A DNA stretch of 64,000 bases from the sequence record OY726582; one strand, written 5' to 3'. The number at the start of each line of letters is the position of its first letter. The stretch's first letter is position 1. Of this stretch, positions 29,379 through 38,376 are shown piece by piece. The position numbers and the translations under genes were made by a program. A model generated the notes under the pieces. The model saw only the letters and a list, made by a program, of their open reading frames with translations. It searched no databases and was not told the origin of the DNA. Source of the stretch: Escherichia phage vB_Eco_NicPhage.

Positions 29379-29408
29379 ATAGTATCACACATCCGTGTGT
29401 TTGTAAAC
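29379..29408 (-). promoter_or_regulatory. early sigma70-like promoter (-35 GTTTAC, 18 nt, -10 TACTAT)
   Basis: Minus-strand GTTTACaaacacacggatgtgtgaTACTAT, 30 nt upstream of the 29349 ATG. Confidence 0.55.
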
Positions 29409-31495
29409 TATCCTTGGACAAATTTAAACGGAACTGATTCTAAATCCATTAAAGATGCTAACAATTTCAAACCTTTAGGTGCACTAGTTTTTTCTACAAA
29501 TGAGGCAAAAGATACCGGCTCATCTGATTCGATTTCACCCGTCATAGCAACTACCTCGCCTGTTTCCATGAGAACATCACCATCGTAAATGACAGCTTCG
29601 TCCAACTGGTCCGAGGACATGACTTCAGCTTGAATAAATTTAAGGTTGGATTCTAAACCTGCACCAGTGTCAGATGACGCATCTGTAATTTTATTTATCT
29701 GCAAGAGAATGCCTCTAGGCAAAATAATTTCTTGCTCATTAGGGTGATTACTCAACTGTCCGGGATAAATCACGTTAACTTTATGAGCGCCATCAATAGC
29801 CCATCCAACATTAACACGAATTTGTTCTGGCGCATGCATAGCGGTACGTGCCAGGCTAGGAGAAATAGTAACACCTTCGTCATTATTGTCAATGTTAAGC
29901 TCTTTGCGAACTTCTTCAGGAGCAAGTCCAAGGGCAACGTTCTCTTTAAACCCACCAAAAATAATAGGAGCTAATGAAGTAGAAACATAGTTTCTGAAGT
30001 AGAATACCTTATTTTTAACCATTGCTTCGTAAATAGGCATTCTGATAGACTGGGCTCTATACAACGTTAGTCCTTCAGGTAAACGGTCTCCATTTAAAAA
30101 CGCCGAATCAAGACCATCAATAGCGCGTTTAACTTCATCTTCATCTGCAACATCATAAAAATCCGGTTTATAACGGCCTAACAACATATTATTGATATCG
30201 GTATACGCAGAAGAGGCATATTCGCGAATAGCTCGTTTTTCAGCAACAGAGTATTGTTTAGGGTCCCGATTCATTGTTATATTAAAGGTGCCTCTAGCCG
30301 ATTCTCGTGCATAAGTATACATCACATTAGACAAGAACGCTGATTTACGTTGTTTCCAAGTTTTTTCAGATACTTCAGCTAAAACATCGTCGGCCAGTTG
30401 GAAATTATCACGTCTAAAATCTTCAAACCATTCGTCTTTAATAGAGTCCGCAATTTCGTTTGCAGCTTCAACAAAAGCAGCTAATGCTTTAACAGATGTT
30501 GTTTTTTCAGTTTTAATTTTCTTAGCAAACTTTTCTAAAGTTGGCTTAATAACACTACCATAAGAAACTTCATCAGCAAATCTAAAGGATTCATCAATAC
30601 GATTATAAATCTTATTTTCGATATCAGCAACTAAAGTGCCTTTTGCTGTGGATGATGCTTGGGCTAGTACGATTTCATATGCTTCAGGAAGTAATTCGGC
30701 TGTAGCCGGGCCACTAACTTCTTTAGCAGAATTTTCGTATTTCTGGAATAACTCACCTTCTTGGCGGTCAGCTTCTAAAGATTGGCTTGCGGCAATAGCA
30801 CGACGAGAAATTTTAGTACGAGCAATAACAGGCTTATCTTTACGTTTTTCTTCTACAGCAGCAATAGAACCAGCGATAGCCGTTTCTTTGGTGACTTTTT
30901 CGCCGGTCTTTTTACTCACATAAACTTCGCCAACATCAGAATCTACTTTCGTGTACAACTCTGTGTTAATGTTAGGGATGCCTTTAATATCTTCAATGTT
31001 GGCATTTTTACGAACCATCATCACATAGGTGTGTTTACCTGTGAATTGATACATTGCCGACAATACTTTAAAACGACCACCGGTTTTAGTAGAAACTAAA
31101 CGAGCAAGAAGAGTTTGAAGCTGTTGTCCACGTCCTTTCAATTTCTTGGTAGGGAATCGGAACAGAACTGCATCCATACGAAGAGCTTTAACCTGTTCAT
31201 ATACCGTATTGAAAATGGTGTTGATTGCATCAATAGGAGCAGGACCAAGGCCATTTTTCAATTCAGCGAGATTACCCTTTTCAGACAGACTCATAATAAC
31301 AACATGAGCGTATTTGTCGCCAAGTTTAACTTGTTTTACAGCATCGCCTTCAGAAAGGTAAGAGAATAAGCGAACTACGATGTTTGTATCGATATCACCA
31401 ATTTTCCAGACTTGTGGAACTTTAGCTTTAGGGTTCAAATTGACGACAGGAAGACTGCCTTCAGATTCAAACACTTCATTTAATTGTTCAGACAT
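29408..31495 (-). CDS. alt: Alt ADP-ribosyltransferase (head-packaged, modifies host RNA polymerase)
   Basis: 695-aa ORF; size and position (between gene 54 and ligase gene 30) as T4 alt. Confidence 0.8.
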   Translation of the reverse strand: MSEQLNEVFESEGSLPVVNLNPKAKVPQVWKIGDIDTNIVVRLFSYLSEGDAVKQVKLGDKYAHVVIMSLSEKGNLAELKNGLGPAPIDAINTIFNTVYEQVKALRMDAVLFRFPTKKLKGRGQQLQTLLARLVSTKTGGRFKVLSAMYQFTGKHTYVMMVRKNANIEDIKGIPNINTELYTKVDSDVGEVYVSKKTGEKVTKETAIAGSIAAVEEKRKDKPVIARTKISRRAIAASQSLEADRQEGELFQKYENSAKEVSGPATAELLPEAYEIVLAQASSTAKGTLVADIENKIYNRIDESFRFADEVSYGSVIKPTLEKFAKKIKTEKTTSVKALAAFVEAANEIADSIKDEWFEDFRRDNFQLADDVLAEVSEKTWKQRKSAFLSNVMYTYARESARGTFNITMNRDPKQYSVAEKRAIREYASSAYTDINNMLLGRYKPDFYDVADEDEVKRAIDGLDSAFLNGDRLPEGLTLYRAQSIRMPIYEAMVKNKVFYFRNYVSTSLAPIIFGGFKENVALGLAPEEVRKELNIDNNDEGVTISPSLARTAMHAPEQIRVNVGWAIDGAHKVNVIYPGQLSNHPNEQEIILPRGILLQINKITDASSDTGAGLESNLKFIQAEVMSSDQLDEAVIYDGDVLMETGEVVAMTGEIESDEPVSFASFVEKTSAPKGLKLLASLMDLESVPFKFVQG

Positions 31496-31550: not shown

Positions 31551-31739
31551 TTAATCCACAATCGGGAGCAAAGTACGATAAACTTCAAAATTAGGACCTT
31601 TTTCGTACTTATCGAAATTGTCCATAAAAATATGATAGGAATCGTTATTAGGAAAATCTAATATAATCTGAGAGCAAGAGGTGGAAACATCTCCACCATC
31701 CTTCTTAGCTACAATAACTGTTTCTAAATAAGCTTTCAT
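31551..31739 (-). CDS. hypothetical small protein
   Basis: 62 aa from the ATG that overlaps the ligase stop (TAATG). Confidence 0.4.
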   Translation of the reverse strand: MKAYLETVIVAKKDGGDVSTSCSQIILDFPNNDSYHIFMDNFDKYEKGPNFEVYRTLLPIVD

Positions 31740-33232
31740 TATAAACCTGTCTGGGACCACGGTCCAAATACGTCTTCAAACGAATCCGCTTCTGTTTTAT
31801 CAAAACGGAACCCTTTAATAATTGGGAGGAAAATACCTACAGTGCCTTCACGTCCTTTAGAATGAACCCAACCATTACATTCACAATCAGCAATACGTCC
31901 AATCAATTTACCTTCACGAGCTTCGGCCATTAATCGTTCACGGTCCAAATCATGTCGCTCATCTAAAGGAATAAGAACCTTTACACCATCAACTGTTTTA
32001 TGAGTTGTATCTTTAAACCCTGAACCACAATCGGTTGTAATACGACGACAACGTGATACGAGTTCGACACCACCTAATTTGTTAGGGTCTTTAGAGTGTT
32101 CATAGTATCCTACAACTTCTAAAGCGATATCAATAACTTCTTTAAATTTAATTAGGTTCTTAGAACGTTTGTTTTCCCAATATGAATCACGGTTTTTAAG
32201 GATAATACCTTCAAGACCTTGGTCAACATATTTTTTATAAACCACTTTAGCTTCGTCAAGATTACGAACTAACTGATTTTCAATTGGCTCAATTCGTTTA
32301 AAGCCTTCAGCCATATTTTCAAGAGCAGCAAAACGAACATCGTATTTCTGACCTTTAATTTTGCCATCAGAATAGACTTCATCTAAAGGAACATAGTCCC
32401 AGGCTTGAAGAACCATACCTTCAGCTTCTTTAGGAGAAATAGTCCCTTGAAGAGATTTATTTGCTAAACCGTTTGAAGTGCTACGGTCCGCAACTTGTAC
32501 TTCTTCGGATTCTTCATTATCACCAAATAAGAACGACAGGTCATTTCCTGAGCTCACAGCCTTTTTAATATCAAATGAATGGTAAACTAATTCACCGTCG
32601 ATTAAAACCCCATTATGGTGTCTTTCACGAGCTTCTTTAGTCATTTCCATTAGTTCATCCGCTAATAGAGTAAGACCATGATATTCGTTGCCGGCACGAG
32701 AAAAGAATTGAACACCATCATCGCGAACTTCAGCGAAACAACGAGCACCATCTGCTTTTAATTGGGCAAATGCGGGCCATTTAATATTTTTAGTAATCAA
32801 TTTCTCGTCATATGCAGATGCTAACATCTGTGGTTGCAATTGAATAAGTCCAGGCCACACCTTATTCGCGATAGACACTGAAGCACCTACTTCAAGGTCG
32901 CGCATCATTACACGACGAAGGACTTCTACATCATCAGGTTTACCATCAGCGATATAACCCATGAGCTCTTTAATTGCAGCATTACCAGTGAGTTTACGAG
33001 TGGCTAATGTGAACTCAATAAAATCCAACATGTCATCTAATTCAAGAAGACCATACGCTTGAGACCTTTCACCTGGTCCTGGCCATTTCTTAATATAATA
33101 CTGGATACCACGTGCATATGTTAAACGATACACACGTTCAAGTAATTTGTTGTCCTTATTTTTCTTAAGGATTTCCTGTTTTGTTTTAGTAGAACCGATC
33201 GCAGCTATTTGGTTTAAAATATCTAAAATCAT
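31739..33232 (-). CDS. 30: ATP-dependent DNA ligase gp30
   Basis: 497-aa ORF with adenylation motif I KADG (QLKADGARCF); T4 gp30-like length and position. Confidence 0.93.
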   Translation of the reverse strand: MILDILNQIAAIGSTKTKQEILKKNKDNKLLERVYRLTYARGIQYYIKKWPGPGERSQAYGLLELDDMLDFIEFTLATRKLTGNAAIKELMGYIADGKPDDVEVLRRVMMRDLEVGASVSIANKVWPGLIQLQPQMLASAYDEKLITKNIKWPAFAQLKADGARCFAEVRDDGVQFFSRAGNEYHGLTLLADELMEMTKEARERHHNGVLIDGELVYHSFDIKKAVSSGNDLSFLFGDNEESEEVQVADRSTSNGLANKSLQGTISPKEAEGMVLQAWDYVPLDEVYSDGKIKGQKYDVRFAALENMAEGFKRIEPIENQLVRNLDEAKVVYKKYVDQGLEGIILKNRDSYWENKRSKNLIKFKEVIDIALEVVGYYEHSKDPNKLGGVELVSRCRRITTDCGSGFKDTTHKTVDGVKVLIPLDERHDLDRERLMAEAREGKLIGRIADCECNGWVHSKGREGTVGIFLPIIKGFRFDKTEADSFEDVFGPWSQTGL

Positions 33233-33498
33233 TTGATGTCCTCGATTTTGGTTACGGTTCTATTATAAGCCACTTCATCTAGAAGCGATTTCAGCGTTTT
33301 CTGATAAGTTGTAATCCATTTACCGAGTCCTTCAACATAGTATTCTGAAATGTAGATGAACCCTTGTTCAACACACTCTTTAAATATTTCTGCGTCTTTT
33401 ACTGAACGAAACAATGGTCAGTCTCGAAAGAACATGTTAACGTGACCGTAGTCACGTGTGGTATTTTTGCCATCTGTAATATCATGAACTACAAACAT
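33229..33498 (-). pseudogene. small early ORF interrupted by an in-frame TGA (opal) codon
   Basis: ATG at 33498, 26 codons, TGA at 33418-33420, then 62 further sense codons in the same frame to 33229; the downstream part has no ATG (track start is TTG). Confidence 0.45.
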
Positions 33499-33507
33499 AA
33501 TTAACCC

Positions 33508-34332
33508 TTAACAATTTATAGACCAAGTCCATTTAGACGAATCTAAAGGAAAGTTTTGAATCGTCCACCACGGCTGCATATCAGTTGGTCCTGGGGTTCG
33601 CCAGGTATATGGAGTACGTGTTGTCGAGGGGCCACCAATTTGATTGGGCCATGCACCTGGACTTGTTGCACCAGATTCTTTAAGCAAATCCGCCAATCGT
33701 TTTAAAAGGTCTTCACGATCTGAATCTGAATTATTCTTAGGCAGAACCAAACGAGATTCAATATCATCCCACGTGTGTACACGTTGTGCAGTACGAGGAA
33801 TGGCATCACGTTCACCACGAGCCAACCAATAAATCGGTACATTAAGAATTTCTGCCGCATGGTCACAATGATGAGCTAAATCGTCAACGTAACAAATTAC
33901 GTTATATTTTGTTTTAGCTAGTTCGAATAATTGTTCCTTTGAAGAATCATGACCACACATCATTACTTCAGAGAAAGCGCCTGGGAACAAAGCATTCAAA
34001 TTAAATTGTCTATTCAATCGAGCATCAATTGAATCACCTAGCGCCGTCACGGCTACAAAATTATAGTCTTCTTTTAGTTTATTGATAACTCGAAGAGCAT
34101 CAGAATAAGGCGCTAAGTAACGAATAAAATCAGAGCTATTATATTTTTCTATTAATTGTTTACCAAGGTTATCGTCGGTATTGAACAGTTTACCAGGAGA
34201 AATAAATTTTTCGTCCTGAATCATTTTTAAAATATGTTCTAATGGAAGGTTATATTTTTGGGCAAAATAAGGAAGTCCAGATTGCCAGCTTAAACATACA
34301 CCATCAATATCAGTCAAAATAGTAGGCTTCAT
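33508..34332 (-). CDS. HAD-superfamily hydrolase-like protein (T4 30.2-like position)
   Basis: 274-aa ORF; N-terminal ILTDIDGV (HAD motif I) and YVDDLAHH (motif IV-like); unusual Trp/Pro-rich C-terminal tail. Confidence 0.5.
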   Translation of the reverse strand: MKPTILTDIDGVCLSWQSGLPYFAQKYNLPLEHILKMIQDEKFISPGKLFNTDDNLGKQLIEKYNSSDFIRYLAPYSDALRVINKLKEDYNFVAVTALGDSIDARLNRQFNLNALFPGAFSEVMMCGHDSSKEQLFELAKTKYNVICYVDDLAHHCDHAAEILNVPIYWLARGERDAIPRTAQRVHTWDDIESRLVLPKNNSDSDREDLLKRLADLLKESGATSPGAWPNQIGGPSTTRTPYTWRTPGPTDMQPWWTIQNFPLDSSKWTWSINC

Positions 34333-34796
34333 AAAGAGTCTCTTAATAGGTTTAACACGTCAATAAATTCATCTTCAGTTAGTATTGTATCATCTTTTGT
34401 TAGGTGGCTGGCCATGCTGTGCTTCAAAATTTTTCCTTTAGAGGCTTGTAAGGCATCACGAAACCCCTTGTTTTGGATCGCGGCTTCAAAATATGCATTT
34501 GTGTATAATTCTTTCCACGCTTCGGAGTATCTTGAAAATGGAACTCCTAACCAGAAGAGAGTCCCACGGTCCTGAGCTCTTGCGTAAGACCTTCCAGCTT
34601 GCTGTGCGGCCAGTCCTGACAGCCCAAATATACGTCTTTGTTGTTCAACATTTTTCACCTTACATCCTTGGAGAAATCCTTCAAGACCTCCGAATTGAAT
34701 ACCATCCATAACAAAAGGCCATTGAGCAAAGTTACTTAATGCACATGACGGCCATTTGAAATTACTTCTTATTTCTAATTCAGACATCTTTAACAC
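34329..34796 (-). CDS. NADAR/YbiA-like (DUF1768) protein (T4 30.3-like position)
   Basis: 155-aa ORF; SNFAQWPF...DG...F.S.EGFLQ motif block aligns with E. coli YbiA DFSNFAAWPIKVDGKTWPTSEHYFQ. Confidence 0.6.
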   Translation of the reverse strand: MLKMSELEIRSNFKWPSCALSNFAQWPFVMDGIQFGGLEGFLQGCKVKNVEQQRRIFGLSGLAAQQAGRSYARAQDRGTLFWLGVPFSRYSEAWKELYTNAYFEAAIQNKGFRDALQASKGKILKHSMASHLTKDDTILTEDEFIDVLNLLRDSL

Positions 34797-34998
34797 TTAT
34801 AATTTCAACATCAGCCCAATGTCCGTATCCAGGTATACGGTCTTCGATAGATAAATTTCTGTCATTTTTAGGCATTTTAATTGACGTAACGTATGGTTCT
34901 AAACGGTTTTCCGCGTAATATGGAAAAACGTCGGTTACACGATAAGTAACTTCAATCATTTCCGTACCAAACAATTTCTGGATTAATTTATTCAACAT
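34780..34998 (-). CDS. hypothetical protein
   Basis: 72-aa ORF with ATG start, in the co-directional early cluster. Confidence 0.4.
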   Translation of the reverse strand: MLNKLIQKLFGTEMIEVTYRVTDVFPYYAENRLEPYVTSIKMPKNDRNLSIEDRIPGYGHWADVEIISVKDV

Positions 34999-35185
34999 GT
35001 TTCAACCCTTTAATAGGAGATAACTCTTTACCCATACGTATGTCAGAAGTCCCATCAACCCATTGAACAGCATACGCTTCATTGATAATTCCAACGGCAG
35101 TTTTAAATTCTTTGAGAACTTTAAAAATCATCCCAGGGATTCCAACACCTTTTAATTGGACTGTTTGTGCTATTAAAAATTTCAT
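34988..35185 (-). CDS. hypothetical protein
   Basis: 65-aa ORF with ATG start, in the co-directional early cluster. Confidence 0.4.
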   Translation of the reverse strand: MKFLIAQTVQLKGVGIPGMIFKVLKEFKTAVGIINEAYAVQWVDGTSDIRMGKELSPIKGLKHVE

Positions 35186-35239
35186 ATTTTTCCACTTACT
35201 AAAGAAATCATTATACTCTAATCCGTCCTTGGATGTACA

Positions 35240-35854
35240 CTACTTAATGAAATTAATTTCTACCGGATGAACAACAGGTTGAGCAGTGATATATTGAGTA
35301 ATTGCTTTCATGACTAGAGCTTCAGAACCAGGATTTTTCTCAACGAATTCACGTGCTAGGTTATGAGCTTCGAGTTCACTCAATAAACCGGAACGCTGGC
35401 ATCGGCGGTCTTGAGTACCCTGTTCAGATAAAAGGACTACTACATATTTTTCATCGTCGTAGGGCTTAGCCAGTTGAGCAAATGTTCCTTTACTTCCAAA
35501 AGGAGAGTTATGTCGCCACATCACGCCGTGAGGAGTTTCAACCTTCGTATATTCGTGCGGTCCATTTTTCTTAGTTTCTTGATGTGGAACTTCATAGACC
35601 TTAGGGTTAGGACATTCAATAAAATGCTCATCTAAATCGGTCGAGAATATTAAAGTAAAACAATTACTGAATTTACCAACACCGGCCTGATAAATTTTAC
35701 CTTCAGAAGTTCTAATTTCACAAACTGAGCCGGCATCAGTAACTTCTAAAACTTCAAAAGGCTCAATAAGGTCATATGAGAACATGTTTTTAAGGCGTGG
35801 AGTAATATCCCCATTTTTAAAATTCATTTTATAAAAAGTATTAACTTTAAACAT
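35240..35854 (-). CDS. hypothetical protein
   Basis: Start placed at MFKVNTFY (GAGGA ribosome-binding site just after a hairpin); about 204 aa. Confidence 0.5.
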   Translation of the reverse strand: MFKVNTFYKMNFKNGDITPRLKNMFSYDLIEPFEVLEVTDAGSVCEIRTSEGKIYQAGVGKFSNCFTLIFSTDLDEHFIECPNPKVYEVPHQETKKNGPHEYTKVETPHGVMWRHNSPFGSKGTFAQLAKPYDDEKYVVVLLSEQGTQDRRCQRSGLLSELEAHNLAREFVEKNPGSEALVMKAITQYITAQPVVHPVEINFIK

Positions 35855-35889
35855 AATTTCCTCAGTGGGAGCCGAAGCTCCCAATTAAT

Positions 35890-36255
35890 TTAGATATCAA
35901 ATTCGTTAAGAACTACATCAAAGATTGCTTCGAGATGTTCAGGTTTAGCTCGGTTGCTCAGGATATGACGAATCCAAGTTTTAACCAGAAGTTTACGATT
36001 AACACCATTCCAGCAAGGATGAATACCTAAATCACGCTGACGGAAATCATCATCTAATGCAATTTTAAAATTTGAACCTTCCATCGTGATTGAAACCGTG
36101 ATACCATTTTCAAATCGCATATAAACGTAATTAGGAGTCATGCACTGTTCGATTTCACAAACTGTACCGTTTTCGTGTTTCCATAAGCAAATAACTTCAG
36201 AAGAACCAGCAATACCGTTAGAAACATATTTACGTTCGAAGTTGGTGTAGTTCAT
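35890..36255 (-). CDS. hypothetical protein
   Basis: 121-aa ORF preceded by an early promoter. Confidence 0.5.
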   Translation of the reverse strand: MNYTNFERKYVSNGIAGSSEVICLWKHENGTVCEIEQCMTPNYVYMRFENGITVSITMEGSNFKIALDDDFRQRDLGIHPCWNGVNRKLLVKTWIRHILSNRAKPEHLEAIFDVVLNEFDI

Positions 36256-36296
36256 TTTATTCTCCAGATGTTTAAGTTGTTTGTTGGTACAGGTCT

Positions 36297-36325
36297 ATAA
36301 TAACATAACCTGTACCAAAGTAAAC
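36297..36325 (-). promoter_or_regulatory. early sigma70-like promoter (-35 GTTTAC, 17 nt, -10 TATTAT) flanked by the inverted repeat GGTACAGG/CCTGTACC
   Basis: Minus-strand GTTTACtttggtacaggttatgtTATTATagacctgtacc upstream of the 36255 ATG. Confidence 0.5.
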
Positions 36326-36329
36326 TGTT

Positions 36330-36698
36330 TTATGCAACTTTAATCCAATTGTCTAAATTTAAAACACCTTTGGCTTTCATTTTTTCGATCAGGTTATCTG
36401 CTGTAATGCGTCCATTTTGATACCATGTAACATCTTCAGAGTAACCAGTTTCTTCGTCAACATATGTTTCTGAACGAATTTTACCGGTAATAATAGTTTT
36501 TAATTCATATGTGTCACCTGTGAAAAAGTTTGCTAACACAATTTTCCAAGAGAAATCATCTGAAGGACCTTCAGGGGTCATACAACCTACGAACTCAAAT
36601 TGCTCTTTGTATAACATCCACTGGAATTCTTTAATTTCGATAGCTTTATAACCGTCGTGGTCTTTACATTTGATGTATGAGTTCAGATTGATTTTCAT
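36330..36698 (-). CDS. hypothetical protein
   Basis: 122-aa ORF preceded by an early promoter. Confidence 0.5.
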   Translation of the reverse strand: MKINLNSYIKCKDHDGYKAIEIKEFQWMLYKEQFEFVGCMTPEGPSDDFSWKIVLANFFTGDTYELKTIITGKIRSETYVDEETGYSEDVTWYQNGRITADNLIEKMKAKGVLNLDNWIKVA

Positions 36699-36740
36699 TT
36701 TGTTCTCCGGTTTGTTTTATCGATTAGGTGGTACAAGTCT

Positions 36741-36769
36741 ATAGTAACACATCCTACAGGAGAGTAAAC
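36741..36769 (-). promoter_or_regulatory. early sigma70-like promoter (-35 GTTTAC, 17 nt, -10 TACTAT)
   Basis: Minus-strand GTTTACtctcctgtaggatgtgtTACTATagac, about 40 nt upstream of the 36698 ATG. Confidence 0.55.
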
Positions 36770-36796
36770 ATCTTTTTTAAACTTTTTCTGCCCTAA

Positions 36797-36824
36797 ACGC
36801 ACAAAAGGGAGACCGAAGTCTCCC
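36797..36824 (-). terminator. intrinsic terminator GGGAGAC-UUCG-GUCUCCC plus U-run (minus strand)
   Basis: Same 18-nt hairpin as at 12981, in minus orientation, followed by CTTTTGTGCGTTT. Confidence 0.7.
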
Positions 36825-36829
36825 TAAAA

Positions 36830-37009
36830 TTATGCAACAACCTTTCCAAAACGAGAAGCATCATCTCGAAGAACTGCACGTGCTCTGCGCATGATCTTCT
36901 CAACTGTTTGATTAATACGAGAGTTCGACCCACGCTTGTATCCAGCGCGTTTAGAGGTACCATCAACTTTCTTTTCAACTGCTTTCTTTGCTTTAGCTTG
37001 TTTTGCCAT
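36830..37009 (-). CDS. small lysine/arginine-rich protein, 59 aa (possible nucleic-acid binding)
   Basis: Own translation: MAKQAKAKKAVEKKVDGTSKRAGYKRGSNSRINQTVEKIMRRARAVLRDDASRFGKVVA; below the 60-aa cutoff of the ORF track; followed by the terminator. Confidence 0.4.
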   Translation of the reverse strand: MAKQAKAKKAVEKKVDGTSKRAGYKRGSNSRINQTVEKIMRRARAVLRDDASRFGKVVA

Positions 37010-37304
37010 TATAAATTCTCTTTAAATGAAAATGCAGGACTTATTGACATTGCCTGCGCAAGCCCTCAAGGGGAACATAGGTTTTGGATATTTAACGACA
37101 GGATAACCATAAACCCGTCATCATACCAACCACGACTTAGACAGATAACCTTTTTCTGACGCGTGATAGTACAAAATACATTCAAGAGGTACACCGTAAA
37201 ACTGCCGGGGCCTTAAAACTATAATGATTCGCAAATCATTAATCAGACAGTTCGACGGCTCCTCGATTTTCTAGCCGCACTTAAGGTAGCGAATCACCTA
37301 AAAC

Positions 37305-37553
37305 TTATTTAAGGGTAATAACAAAATGACGTACTGCTTTACGAGCTGCAGAAGCCAAAGGCTTAGCATATTTCAGTTCATCTTTTGCTTCCAGTTCAGA
37401 GGCCAAAGCTGCCTGTACCGGGTTCAGATGTTTGAAATAATGCAGGATTTCCAGTGCTTCGGCTTCAACATCAATCGACGCGCCGTAGTTTTCGTGACCG
37501 TTATTCCATGCGTTTCGTTGCAGTTCAAGAGCGTGTTGTAATTGTTTAATCAT
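37305..37553 (-). CDS. rIII: rIII lysis inhibition accessory protein
   Basis: 82-aa ORF (T4 rIII is 82 aa) immediately downstream of gene 31 as in T4. Confidence 0.7.
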   Translation of the reverse strand: MIKQLQHALELQRNAWNNGHENYGASIDVEAEALEILHYFKHLNPVQAALASELEAKDELKYAKPLASAARKAVRHFVITLK

Positions 37554-37669
37554 TTTAAATTCTCAATTCGAGATAATATTTAGTAGCCACGTTCGTCTGA
37601 ATTTCACCTTCTTTCGACAAGTCTCTCAGTTGTAGGCTACCGCTTAGAAGAGTGTTCTCTTCATATAGT

Positions 37670-37677
37670 TATTTATA
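37670..37677 (-). promoter_or_regulatory. possible late promoter TATAAATA (minus strand) upstream of rIII
   Basis: Plus-strand TATTTATA overlapping the gene 31 stop, about 120 nt upstream of the rIII ATG. Confidence 0.35.
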
Positions 37678-38010
37678 TCACTTATAAAGACACGGAATAG
37701 CTTTATAGTGGCATGTTACGAATTTCTGTTTAATTTCTTTAGGTTGTTTAAGTCCCAAAGCCACAAATGGATGTGGAACATTTCGAATTTGTCCAACTGG
37801 TAGTGGAGTCAAATCACCGACTTCAACAAAACCTTCAGGAACATCAGGACCTACAGAATGAACTACACATAGTTCAGGAACTTCACCTTGAACACGTTTA
37901 CCAATCACAAGTCCTGATTCGGTAACTTCTTCATCACCTGCTTGAGCGGGTTCAGAAACCAGAATGACATATTCACCAACAGCACGAATTGGGAGTTGTA
38001 CTTCAGACAT
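37678..38010 (-). CDS. 31: co-chaperonin gp31 (GroES-like, capsid folding)
   Basis: 110-aa ORF (T4 gp31 is 111 aa), Gly/Val-rich GroES-like composition, synteny with rIII and cd. Confidence 0.85.
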
Positions 38011-38067
38011 CTTATTTCCTTGTTGTTTGACGATAGATTAATAATACCATACTATTCGTAAAGCATA

Positions 38068-38376
38068 TTACATAAGAAGCAAACGTTCTACCGGAGTACC
38101 ATCAACCGAAATTACTTTATCAAGGCGGAAAGAACGCCACTGACCTAACTTGGTATCGAATGCTCGAACTGATTCACGAGGTTCAGAACGAACTTCTGAT
38201 GCCGGATTGTTATTTTCATATTTGACTTCAAGTTCATCGCGAGAAGCAAACATAGTGCGTACCTCACCGTTAGCCTTTTCAAATACAACACAATGAACGC
38301 CTACAGACAGAATAGTTTTAATACGTTCACGAAGAACCATAGTTTCTTGTTCAGTTAAAATCATATTATTCACCAC
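38068..38376 (-). CDS. hypothetical protein (31.1-like position)
   Basis: 102-aa ORF between cd and gene 31. Confidence 0.5.
   Translation of the reverse strand: MVNNMILTEQETMVLRERIKTILSVGVHCVVFEKANGEVRTMFASRDELEVKYENNNPASEVRSEPRESVRAFDTKLGQWRSFRLDKVISVDGTPVERLLLM

Follow-up and report, generated by a model that had tools for sequence, protein, structure and literature searches.

The gene 30.3 orthologue of Escherichia phage vB_Eco_NicPhage is an intact adfN of the phage NADAR subfamily and a probable counter to DarTG1 defence

The 64,000-nucleotide stretch of Escherichia phage vB_Eco_NicPhage analysed here (record OY726582; hereafter the window) contains, on its minus strand, an open reading frame whose longest form occupies 34329..34796 (GTG start, 155 aa). 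A sequence-only reading had assigned this frame to the NADAR (YbiA, DUF1768) family, and had proposed that its product might reverse DarT-type ADP-ribosylation of phage DNA by host defence systems. The locus thus raises the question of which gene this is, how it relates to the NADAR enzymes, and whether this phage carries a functional copy.

The encoded protein matched the Pfam family PF08010 (Phage_30_3) over all 138 positions of the profile, with 232 bits (gathering cutoff 36) and E 2.2e-69, and aligned without gaps to gp30.3 of phage T4, with 146 of 152 residues identical (96%). The six substitutions relative to T4 (R11K, P89E, V121I, I126M, G129H and A139D) all fall outside the invariant or nearly invariant columns of an alignment of 64 homologues. 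As in T4, the gene is located between genes 30.2 and 30.4, with overlapping start and stop codons on both sides. Judged by its sequence and position, the reading frame is a real gene and the orthologue of T4 gene 30.3, which Johannesman et al. 2025 named adfN (anti-DarT factor NADAR; PMC11825919). Using tblastn, we identified homologues in 1510 phage records, of which 1503 cover at least 80% of the query, in phages of Escherichia, Klebsiella, Aeromonas, Acinetobacter, Vibrio and other host genera; phage FL18 encodes a 100% identical protein. The product is labelled "hypothetical protein" in nearly all of these records, PHROGs assigns it to phrog_652 ("unknown function"), and an NCBIfam search with the window protein matched no family. 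The practical value of the identification therefore lies in annotation, and it carries little weight as a discovery: the gene, fold, activity and anti-defence role are already known, having been published for the T4 orthologue in 2023-2025, and bioinformatic analysis identified the gp30.3 family as phage NADARs over ten years ago.

Translation more likely begins at the ATG at 34787 than at the GTG at 34796, nine bases upstream. The ATG is the annotated start in T4, RB69 and APCEc01, and the tblastn matches of distant homologues begin at residues 1-4 of the 152-residue form. The adfN coding sequence, for a phage-type NADAR DNA ADP-ribosylglycohydrolase, accordingly spans 34329..34787 on the minus strand (152 aa), and the in-frame GTG extension at 34788..34796 (minus strand) is probably untranslated. 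Sequence and ORF coordinates place an overlap between the adfN start and the gene 30.4 stop at 34780..34787 (minus strand, ATGTCTGA), with an identical 8-nt overlap in T4, and an ATGA overlap between the adfN stop and the gene 30.2 start at 34329..34332 (minus strand), again arranged as in T4. Through the latter, adfN and 30.2 are probably translationally coupled. A scan of 33000..38200 for sigma-70 promoters and terminators returned 18 sites, against 16.1 +/- 3.7 in shuffled sequence, and thus no excess. The T4 annotation places a further gene, 30.3' (75 aa), out of frame inside 30.3, corresponding to 34424..34651 (minus strand) in the window; this frame starts at the same ATG as in T4 and meets a stop already at codon 35, indicating that 30.3' is not conserved and is probably no real gene.

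Escherichia phage APCEc01, a member of Mosigvirus and the closest relative, shares 99.6% identity with the region, and RB69 shares approximately 95-100% DNA identity with it except at 34996..35881, indicating that the window derives from an RB69-group T4-like phage (Mosigvirus). The excepted segment is the only part of the 29.3-38 kb region shared with neither RB69 nor T4. Gene 30.6 is replaced in it by a 30.5-like ORF of 65 aa and a 214-aa ORF (35240..35884, minus strand; 204 aa with the ATG start of the APCEc01 annotation), the latter matching only phrog_17531, of unknown function, and no Pfam family. The segment has the appearance of a swapped accessory cassette. Comparison with T4 over 34198..34797 additionally identified gene 30.3 as an island of 87-91% nucleotide identity, within flanks of mostly 40-70% (74-81% over the 5' portion of 30.2). 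At the protein level, identity to T4 is 96% for 30.3, 69% for 30.2, 63% for the ligase, 53% for 30.4 and 41% for Alt. Such an island would reflect either unusually strong purifying selection or a recent exchange of the gene between Tequatrovirus and Mosigvirus.

Pfam and T4 comparisons resolve the surroundings into a same-strand run of alt, alt.1, gene 30, 30.1 (DUF3045), 30.2, 30.3, 30.4, 30.5, the 214-aa ORF, 30.7, 30.8, 30.9, rIII, gene 31 (Cpn10), 31.1 and cd (dCMP deaminase). The sequence-only reading had drawn attention to alt, some 3 kb away, and the distance holds: alt (29408..31495, minus strand; Pfam ADPrib_exo_Tox, 2.9e-28) ends 2.8 kb from the adfN 3' end. Between the two genes lie alt.1, the DNA ligase gene 30 (31739..33232, minus strand; Pfam and T4 comparison), 30.1 and 30.2. 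The order alt - 30 - 30.2 - 30.3 is shared with T4, RB69 and Acinetobacter phage Ac42. In RB43, 30.3 was found with 30.2 and 30 within 4 kb and alt was not, and neither alt nor 30.2 homologues were found within 4 kb of the gp30.3 homologues of Vibrio phage K566, Rhizobium phage RL38J1 and Ralstonia phage RSP15. A functional alt-adfN module was rejected, as alt does not accompany 30.3 homologues outside the Straboviridae (Vibrio, Rhizobium and Ralstonia phages, within 4 kb), and we attribute the proximity to a gene order conserved among the Straboviridae.

These distributions bear on the idea that AdfN serves the phage's own Alt (or ModA/ModB), by cleaning up off-target ADP-ribosylation by these enzymes. 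The shared strand, the short distance and the alt homologue near 30.3 in Ac42 would fit such a role, although four genes including DNA ligase intervene, and alt homologues are absent within 4 kb of the homologues in RB43, K566, RL38J1 and RSP15. Moreover, the target of Alt is protein arginine, and this linkage is chemically unlike the guanine N-glycosidic bond cut by NADARs. Finally, adfN is not required on E. coli K-12 lacking DarTG1, despite the presence of Alt (bioRxiv 10.1101/2025.11.20.689424). We consider this role very improbable.

The relationship to NADAR proteins was visible only at the profile and structure level. For the single sequence, the Pfam NADAR family PF08719 gave no match even at E<=1, an outcome that, taken literally, speaks against the family assignment, and phmmer of the protein against PDB sequences retrieved no NADAR, the sole match being a chance lectin (E 2.4). 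In contrast, a profile of 64 gp30.3 homologues, sharing 35-96% identity, placed E. coli YbiA (2b3w) first among PDB sequences (E 0.0084), pairing LSNF...EGFLQ..K with FSNF...EHYFQ..K. Alignment of the same 64 homologues to YbiA with hhalign gave a probability of 93.4% over 91 columns (E 2.6e-7). Individually, 25 of the 64 relatives touched PF08719 at E<=0.1 (best 1.5e-7), and one database relative (P0064) contains both PF08010 and PF08719. The hallmark block named by the sequence-only reading is indeed present: L17-S-N-F20, E36-G-F-L-Q40 and K43 correspond column for column to F29-SNF, E48-HYFQ and K55 of YbiA.

An AlphaFold2 model built from 63 sequences, with the T4 row left out, was of high confidence (mean pLDDT 93.3, pTM 0.89), and its predicted structure has the NADAR fold, a helical core with small flanking sheets. 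Foldseek identified E. coli YbiA as the closest solved relative of the model, as it was by sequence, with approximately 20% identity to the window protein (YbiA 2b3w and the Phytophthora NADAR 8bau, 18-20%). Thus the assignment of AdfN to the NADAR superfamily, as its phage gp30.3 subfamily, is solid.

The invariant columns of the 64-homologue alignment include L17, S18, N19, F20, E36, G37, F38, Q40, K43 and H123, and the window protein retains every invariant residue. Three of these define the active site. Glu36 (codon GAA, 34680..34682, minus strand), the catalytic glutamate, is invariant in 64 of 64 homologues and corresponds to E43 of the P. nicotianae NADAR, E88 of E. coli C7 and E48 of YbiA. 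Lys43 (codon AAG, 34659..34661, minus strand), the phosphate-coordinating lysine, is equally invariant (64/64) and corresponds to Pn K50, C7 K95 and YbiA K55. On alignment with YbiA, both residues are thus conserved. In the Phytophthora enzyme (E43/K50) and its E. coli C7 counterpart (E88/K95), activity requires this pair of residues, which make contacts to the distal ribose and to the phosphates of ADP-ribose.

The third position is His123 (codon CAC, 34419..34421, minus strand), the subfamily-defining residue of the last strand, which is again invariant (64/64) and follows or ends a strand at residues 120-122/123 of the model. The hhalign alignment stops at K122 opposite YbiA V124, and H123 lies one column further; from the alignment, secondary structure and literature, we infer that it pairs with YbiA E125. 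Three papers describe this position as glutamate in YbiA-type, aspartate in DarG1-type and histidine in phage NADARs. "YbiA-like" is hence apt at the level of the NADAR superfamily, and does not extend to the strict YbiA subfamily, in which the third catalytic residue is glutamate. As a separate observation, a seven-base segment of codons 127-130 (34398..34409, minus strand) differs from RB69 at five nucleotides and from T4 at four (GCCAGCCACCTA against GCTAGTGGTCTA), resulting in Gly129 to His. This substitution falls in the loop right after the catalytic His123, in a column that is variable across the family.

Being the closest solved relative by both sequence and Foldseek, YbiA suggests another possible function, that of a housekeeping N-glycosidase acting on reactive intermediates of the riboflavin pathway and not on DNA. 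Identity of only about 20%, the replacement of the YbiA-defining glutamate by an invariant histidine, the activity of the T4 orthologue on ADP-ribosylated DNA and its defence-specific phenotype make this function extremely improbable for AdfN.

The published work on T4 identifies gp30.3 as both required and sufficient for DarTG1 resistance. Mapping with chimeric phages placed the determinant of DarTG1 resistance in the 3' portion of 30.3, and deletion of adfN leaves both T4 and T2 unable to form plaques on DarTG1 cells (PMC11825919). Supplied in trans, adfN rescues RB69, and rescue is lowered by E36A, by K43A and by truncation of the C-terminus of T4 AdfN (PMC11825919). Purified T4 AdfN strips ADP-ribose from DarT1-modified DNA, which the E36A variant does not, and two-hybrid assays detected no binding between AdfN and DarT1 (PMC11825919). 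Independently, Cihlova et al. 2024 found that the NADAR of an E. coli-infecting phage hydrolyses guanine-ADP-ribose and not thymine-ADP-ribose (PMC11125620); a later paper from the Cihlova group identifies this construct as the T4 NADAR gene. In a transposon screen, insertions in 30.3/adfN were lost specifically on DarTG1 (bioRxiv 10.1101/2025.11.20.689424), AdfN is without effect on DarTG2 (PMC11825919), and a 2026 paper reports that T4 NADAR does not remove cytosine-ADP-ribose.

The predicted activity on guanine-linked ADP-ribose is thus borne out by in vitro hydrolysis by the T4 orthologue (PMC11825919, PMC11125620). The broader proposal, reversal of DarT-type DNA ADP-ribosylation, stands for the guanine modification of DarT1, given the T4 deletion, the RB69 rescue and the in vitro removal; it fails for the thymine-ADP-ribose of DarT2, and the enzyme is likewise inactive on cytosine-ADP-ribose. 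By analogy with the 96%-identical T4 protein, for which enzymatic activity, guanine specificity and the anti-DarTG1 phenotype have been demonstrated, the window allele is expected to behave alike.

We consider it highly probable, at roughly 0.9, that adfN is an "orphan antitoxin" of the phage NADAR branch, which undoes the guanine ADP-ribosylation of phage DNA by DarT1. On infection of a cell with the DarTG1 toxin-antitoxin system, the toxin DarT1 would ADP-ribosylate guanines of the phage DNA and block its replication. AdfN, as a minimal NADAR core domain, would bind the ADP-ribose with Lys43 at the phosphates and the distal ribose surrounded by Glu36 and His123, and would hydrolyse the N-glycosidic bond that joins the ribose to guanine N2. 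The DNA would return to its unmodified state, allowing replication, and DarT1 itself would be neither bound nor inhibited.

One alternative is a wider substrate range. AdfN might mainly reverse other nucleic-acid ADP-ribosylation, for instance guanine-ADP-ribose placed on RNA by host or competitor ADP-ribosyltransferases, with the action against DarTG1 as one role of several. Representatives of all NADAR families, including those of phages, are reported in the literature to act in vitro on both RNA and DNA, clearing guanine-ADP-ribose from either, and the spread of the family over 1510 phage records and many host genera is perhaps broader than DarTG1 alone explains. However, in both the genome-wide transposon screen and targeted deletions the phenotype of T4 adfN appears on DarTG1 only, and AdfN has not been linked to any defence based on an RNA-directed guanine ADP-ribosyltransferase. 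We regard a mainly RNA-directed or otherwise broader role as unlikely, and retain reversal of DarT1 modification as the preferred function.

Whether this function extends to the window depends on the allele. RB69 is the type phage of the genus to which the window phage belongs, and the two share 93-100% DNA identity across 30.3. RB69 is sensitive to DarTG1, and its 30.3 carries a thymidine insertion at position 411 and encodes a protein 15 residues shorter (PMC11825919). In a three-way DNA alignment, the extra T of RB69 (gene position 411, alignment column 414) appears as ACTAACTTGAAG. The window reads ACTAAC-TGAAG, without the extra T, which is missing in T4 too. Accordingly, the gene is annotated with 414 nt (137 aa) in RB69 against 459 nt (152 aa) in the window, where the frame runs through all 152 codons to the stop used by T4. 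The absence of the frameshift T indicates that the window allele is full length. It retains the C-terminal alpha-helix (residues 138-151; 34335..34376, minus strand; modelled with a block pLDDT of 89-98), which is lost in the RB69 allele and is required for full activity.

Membership of the RB69 genus, the 93-100% identity across the gene, and the frequency of truncated or fused 30.3 variants in databases could be taken to mean that this adfN is a crippled, non-protective allele like that of RB69. The missing frameshift T, the 152 codons ending at the T4 stop, the retention of all invariant residues and a model that is confident through the C-terminal helix leave that reading barely credible; an RB69-type inactive allele was rejected on the DNA alignment, as the extra T is absent. 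The preferred account, an intact and protective adfN, would mean that the window phage, unlike RB69, resists DarTG1, and an RB69-group phage with this allele should plate on DarTG1 hosts where RB69 cannot, a phenotype predicted from sequence. The allele state of adfN additionally bears on the prediction of host range for T4-like therapeutic phages.

We additionally identified short 30.3 products (86-109 aa) in the deposited T4-like phages SV76, UGJNEcP4, vB_Eco_NR1 and vB_EcoM-RPN226. Of the short or chimeric relatives P0008, P0014, P0016, P0017 and P0049, some are fused to parts of other 30.x families (PF11097, PF06919 and PF06019); P0016, a metagenomic relative of 154 aa, is also chimeric. 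These products point to natural adfN loss or deletion alleles besides the RB69 frameshift.

The action of AdfN also appears to depend on its context. In uninfected E. coli, T4 AdfN gives no protection from DarT1, and its rescue of T5 and Bas25 is weak (PMC11825919, PMC11125620), suggesting that simple hydrolysis may not be the whole mechanism and that a phage factor or context may be needed. The dependence on T-even infection is not due to DNA hydroxymethylation or glucosylation, which suggests a T-even-specific requirement. T4 AdfN is fully effective in T-even infection only, and an additional T-even-encoded protein has been proposed as one possible cause.

A candidate for such a partner adjoins adfN. 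Gene 30.2 (33508..34332, minus strand), whose start lies within the ATGA overlap with the adfN stop, encodes a protein of the HAD superfamily. Pfam alone gave a sub-threshold HAD_2 match, and the best PDB matches include the 5'(3')-deoxyribonucleotidases 2jao, 3bwv and 2i7d (E ~1e-8). D8, D10, K132, D150 and D151 are invariant, and the AlphaFold core (pLDDT >90) is followed by a C-terminal tail of approximately 50 residues that is predicted to be disordered. Homologues of gp30.2 were identified in 1441 phage records, hypothetical in most annotations, and 30.2 adjoins or lies near 30.3 in T4, RB69, Ac42 and RB43. A partnership of AdfN with this translationally coupled HAD-fold phosphatase is a distinctly doubtful suggestion; if true, gp30.2 could remove the ADP-ribose that AdfN releases, or link repair in some other way to the nucleotide metabolism of the phage.

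Finally, we compared AdfN with the characterised systems to which it is related. E. coli YbiA and the Phytophthora NADAR (8bau) have a glutamate on the last strand where AdfN has histidine; YbiA serves riboflavin metabolism as a housekeeping enzyme, and cytosine-ADP-ribose, on which T4 NADAR is inactive, is an additional substrate of YbiA-type and general NADARs. The DarG1 antitoxins (BC4488-type; for example Geobacter lovleyi 8bat and E. coli C7) use a catalytic aspartate (C7 D171) in place of H123, and have 219 residues with an N-terminal extension, whereas AdfN has 152 residues and lacks this extension. The DarG1 gene adjoins that of its toxin DarT1, and adfN does not: its neighbours are 30.2 (HAD-like), 30.4, 30.5 and DNA ligase, and the only ADP-ribosyltransferase nearby is Alt (PF03496). 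Nor does the T4 protein substitute for DarG1 in uninfected cells. RB69, whose 30.3 shares 93-97% DNA identity with the window gene, has the same neighbours as the window up to 30.4, and differs in its frameshifted allele. The closest counterpart is T4 AdfN itself: T4 belongs to Tequatrovirus and the window phage to Mosigvirus, and their proteins have E36, K43, H123, the C-terminal helix and the genomic position in common.
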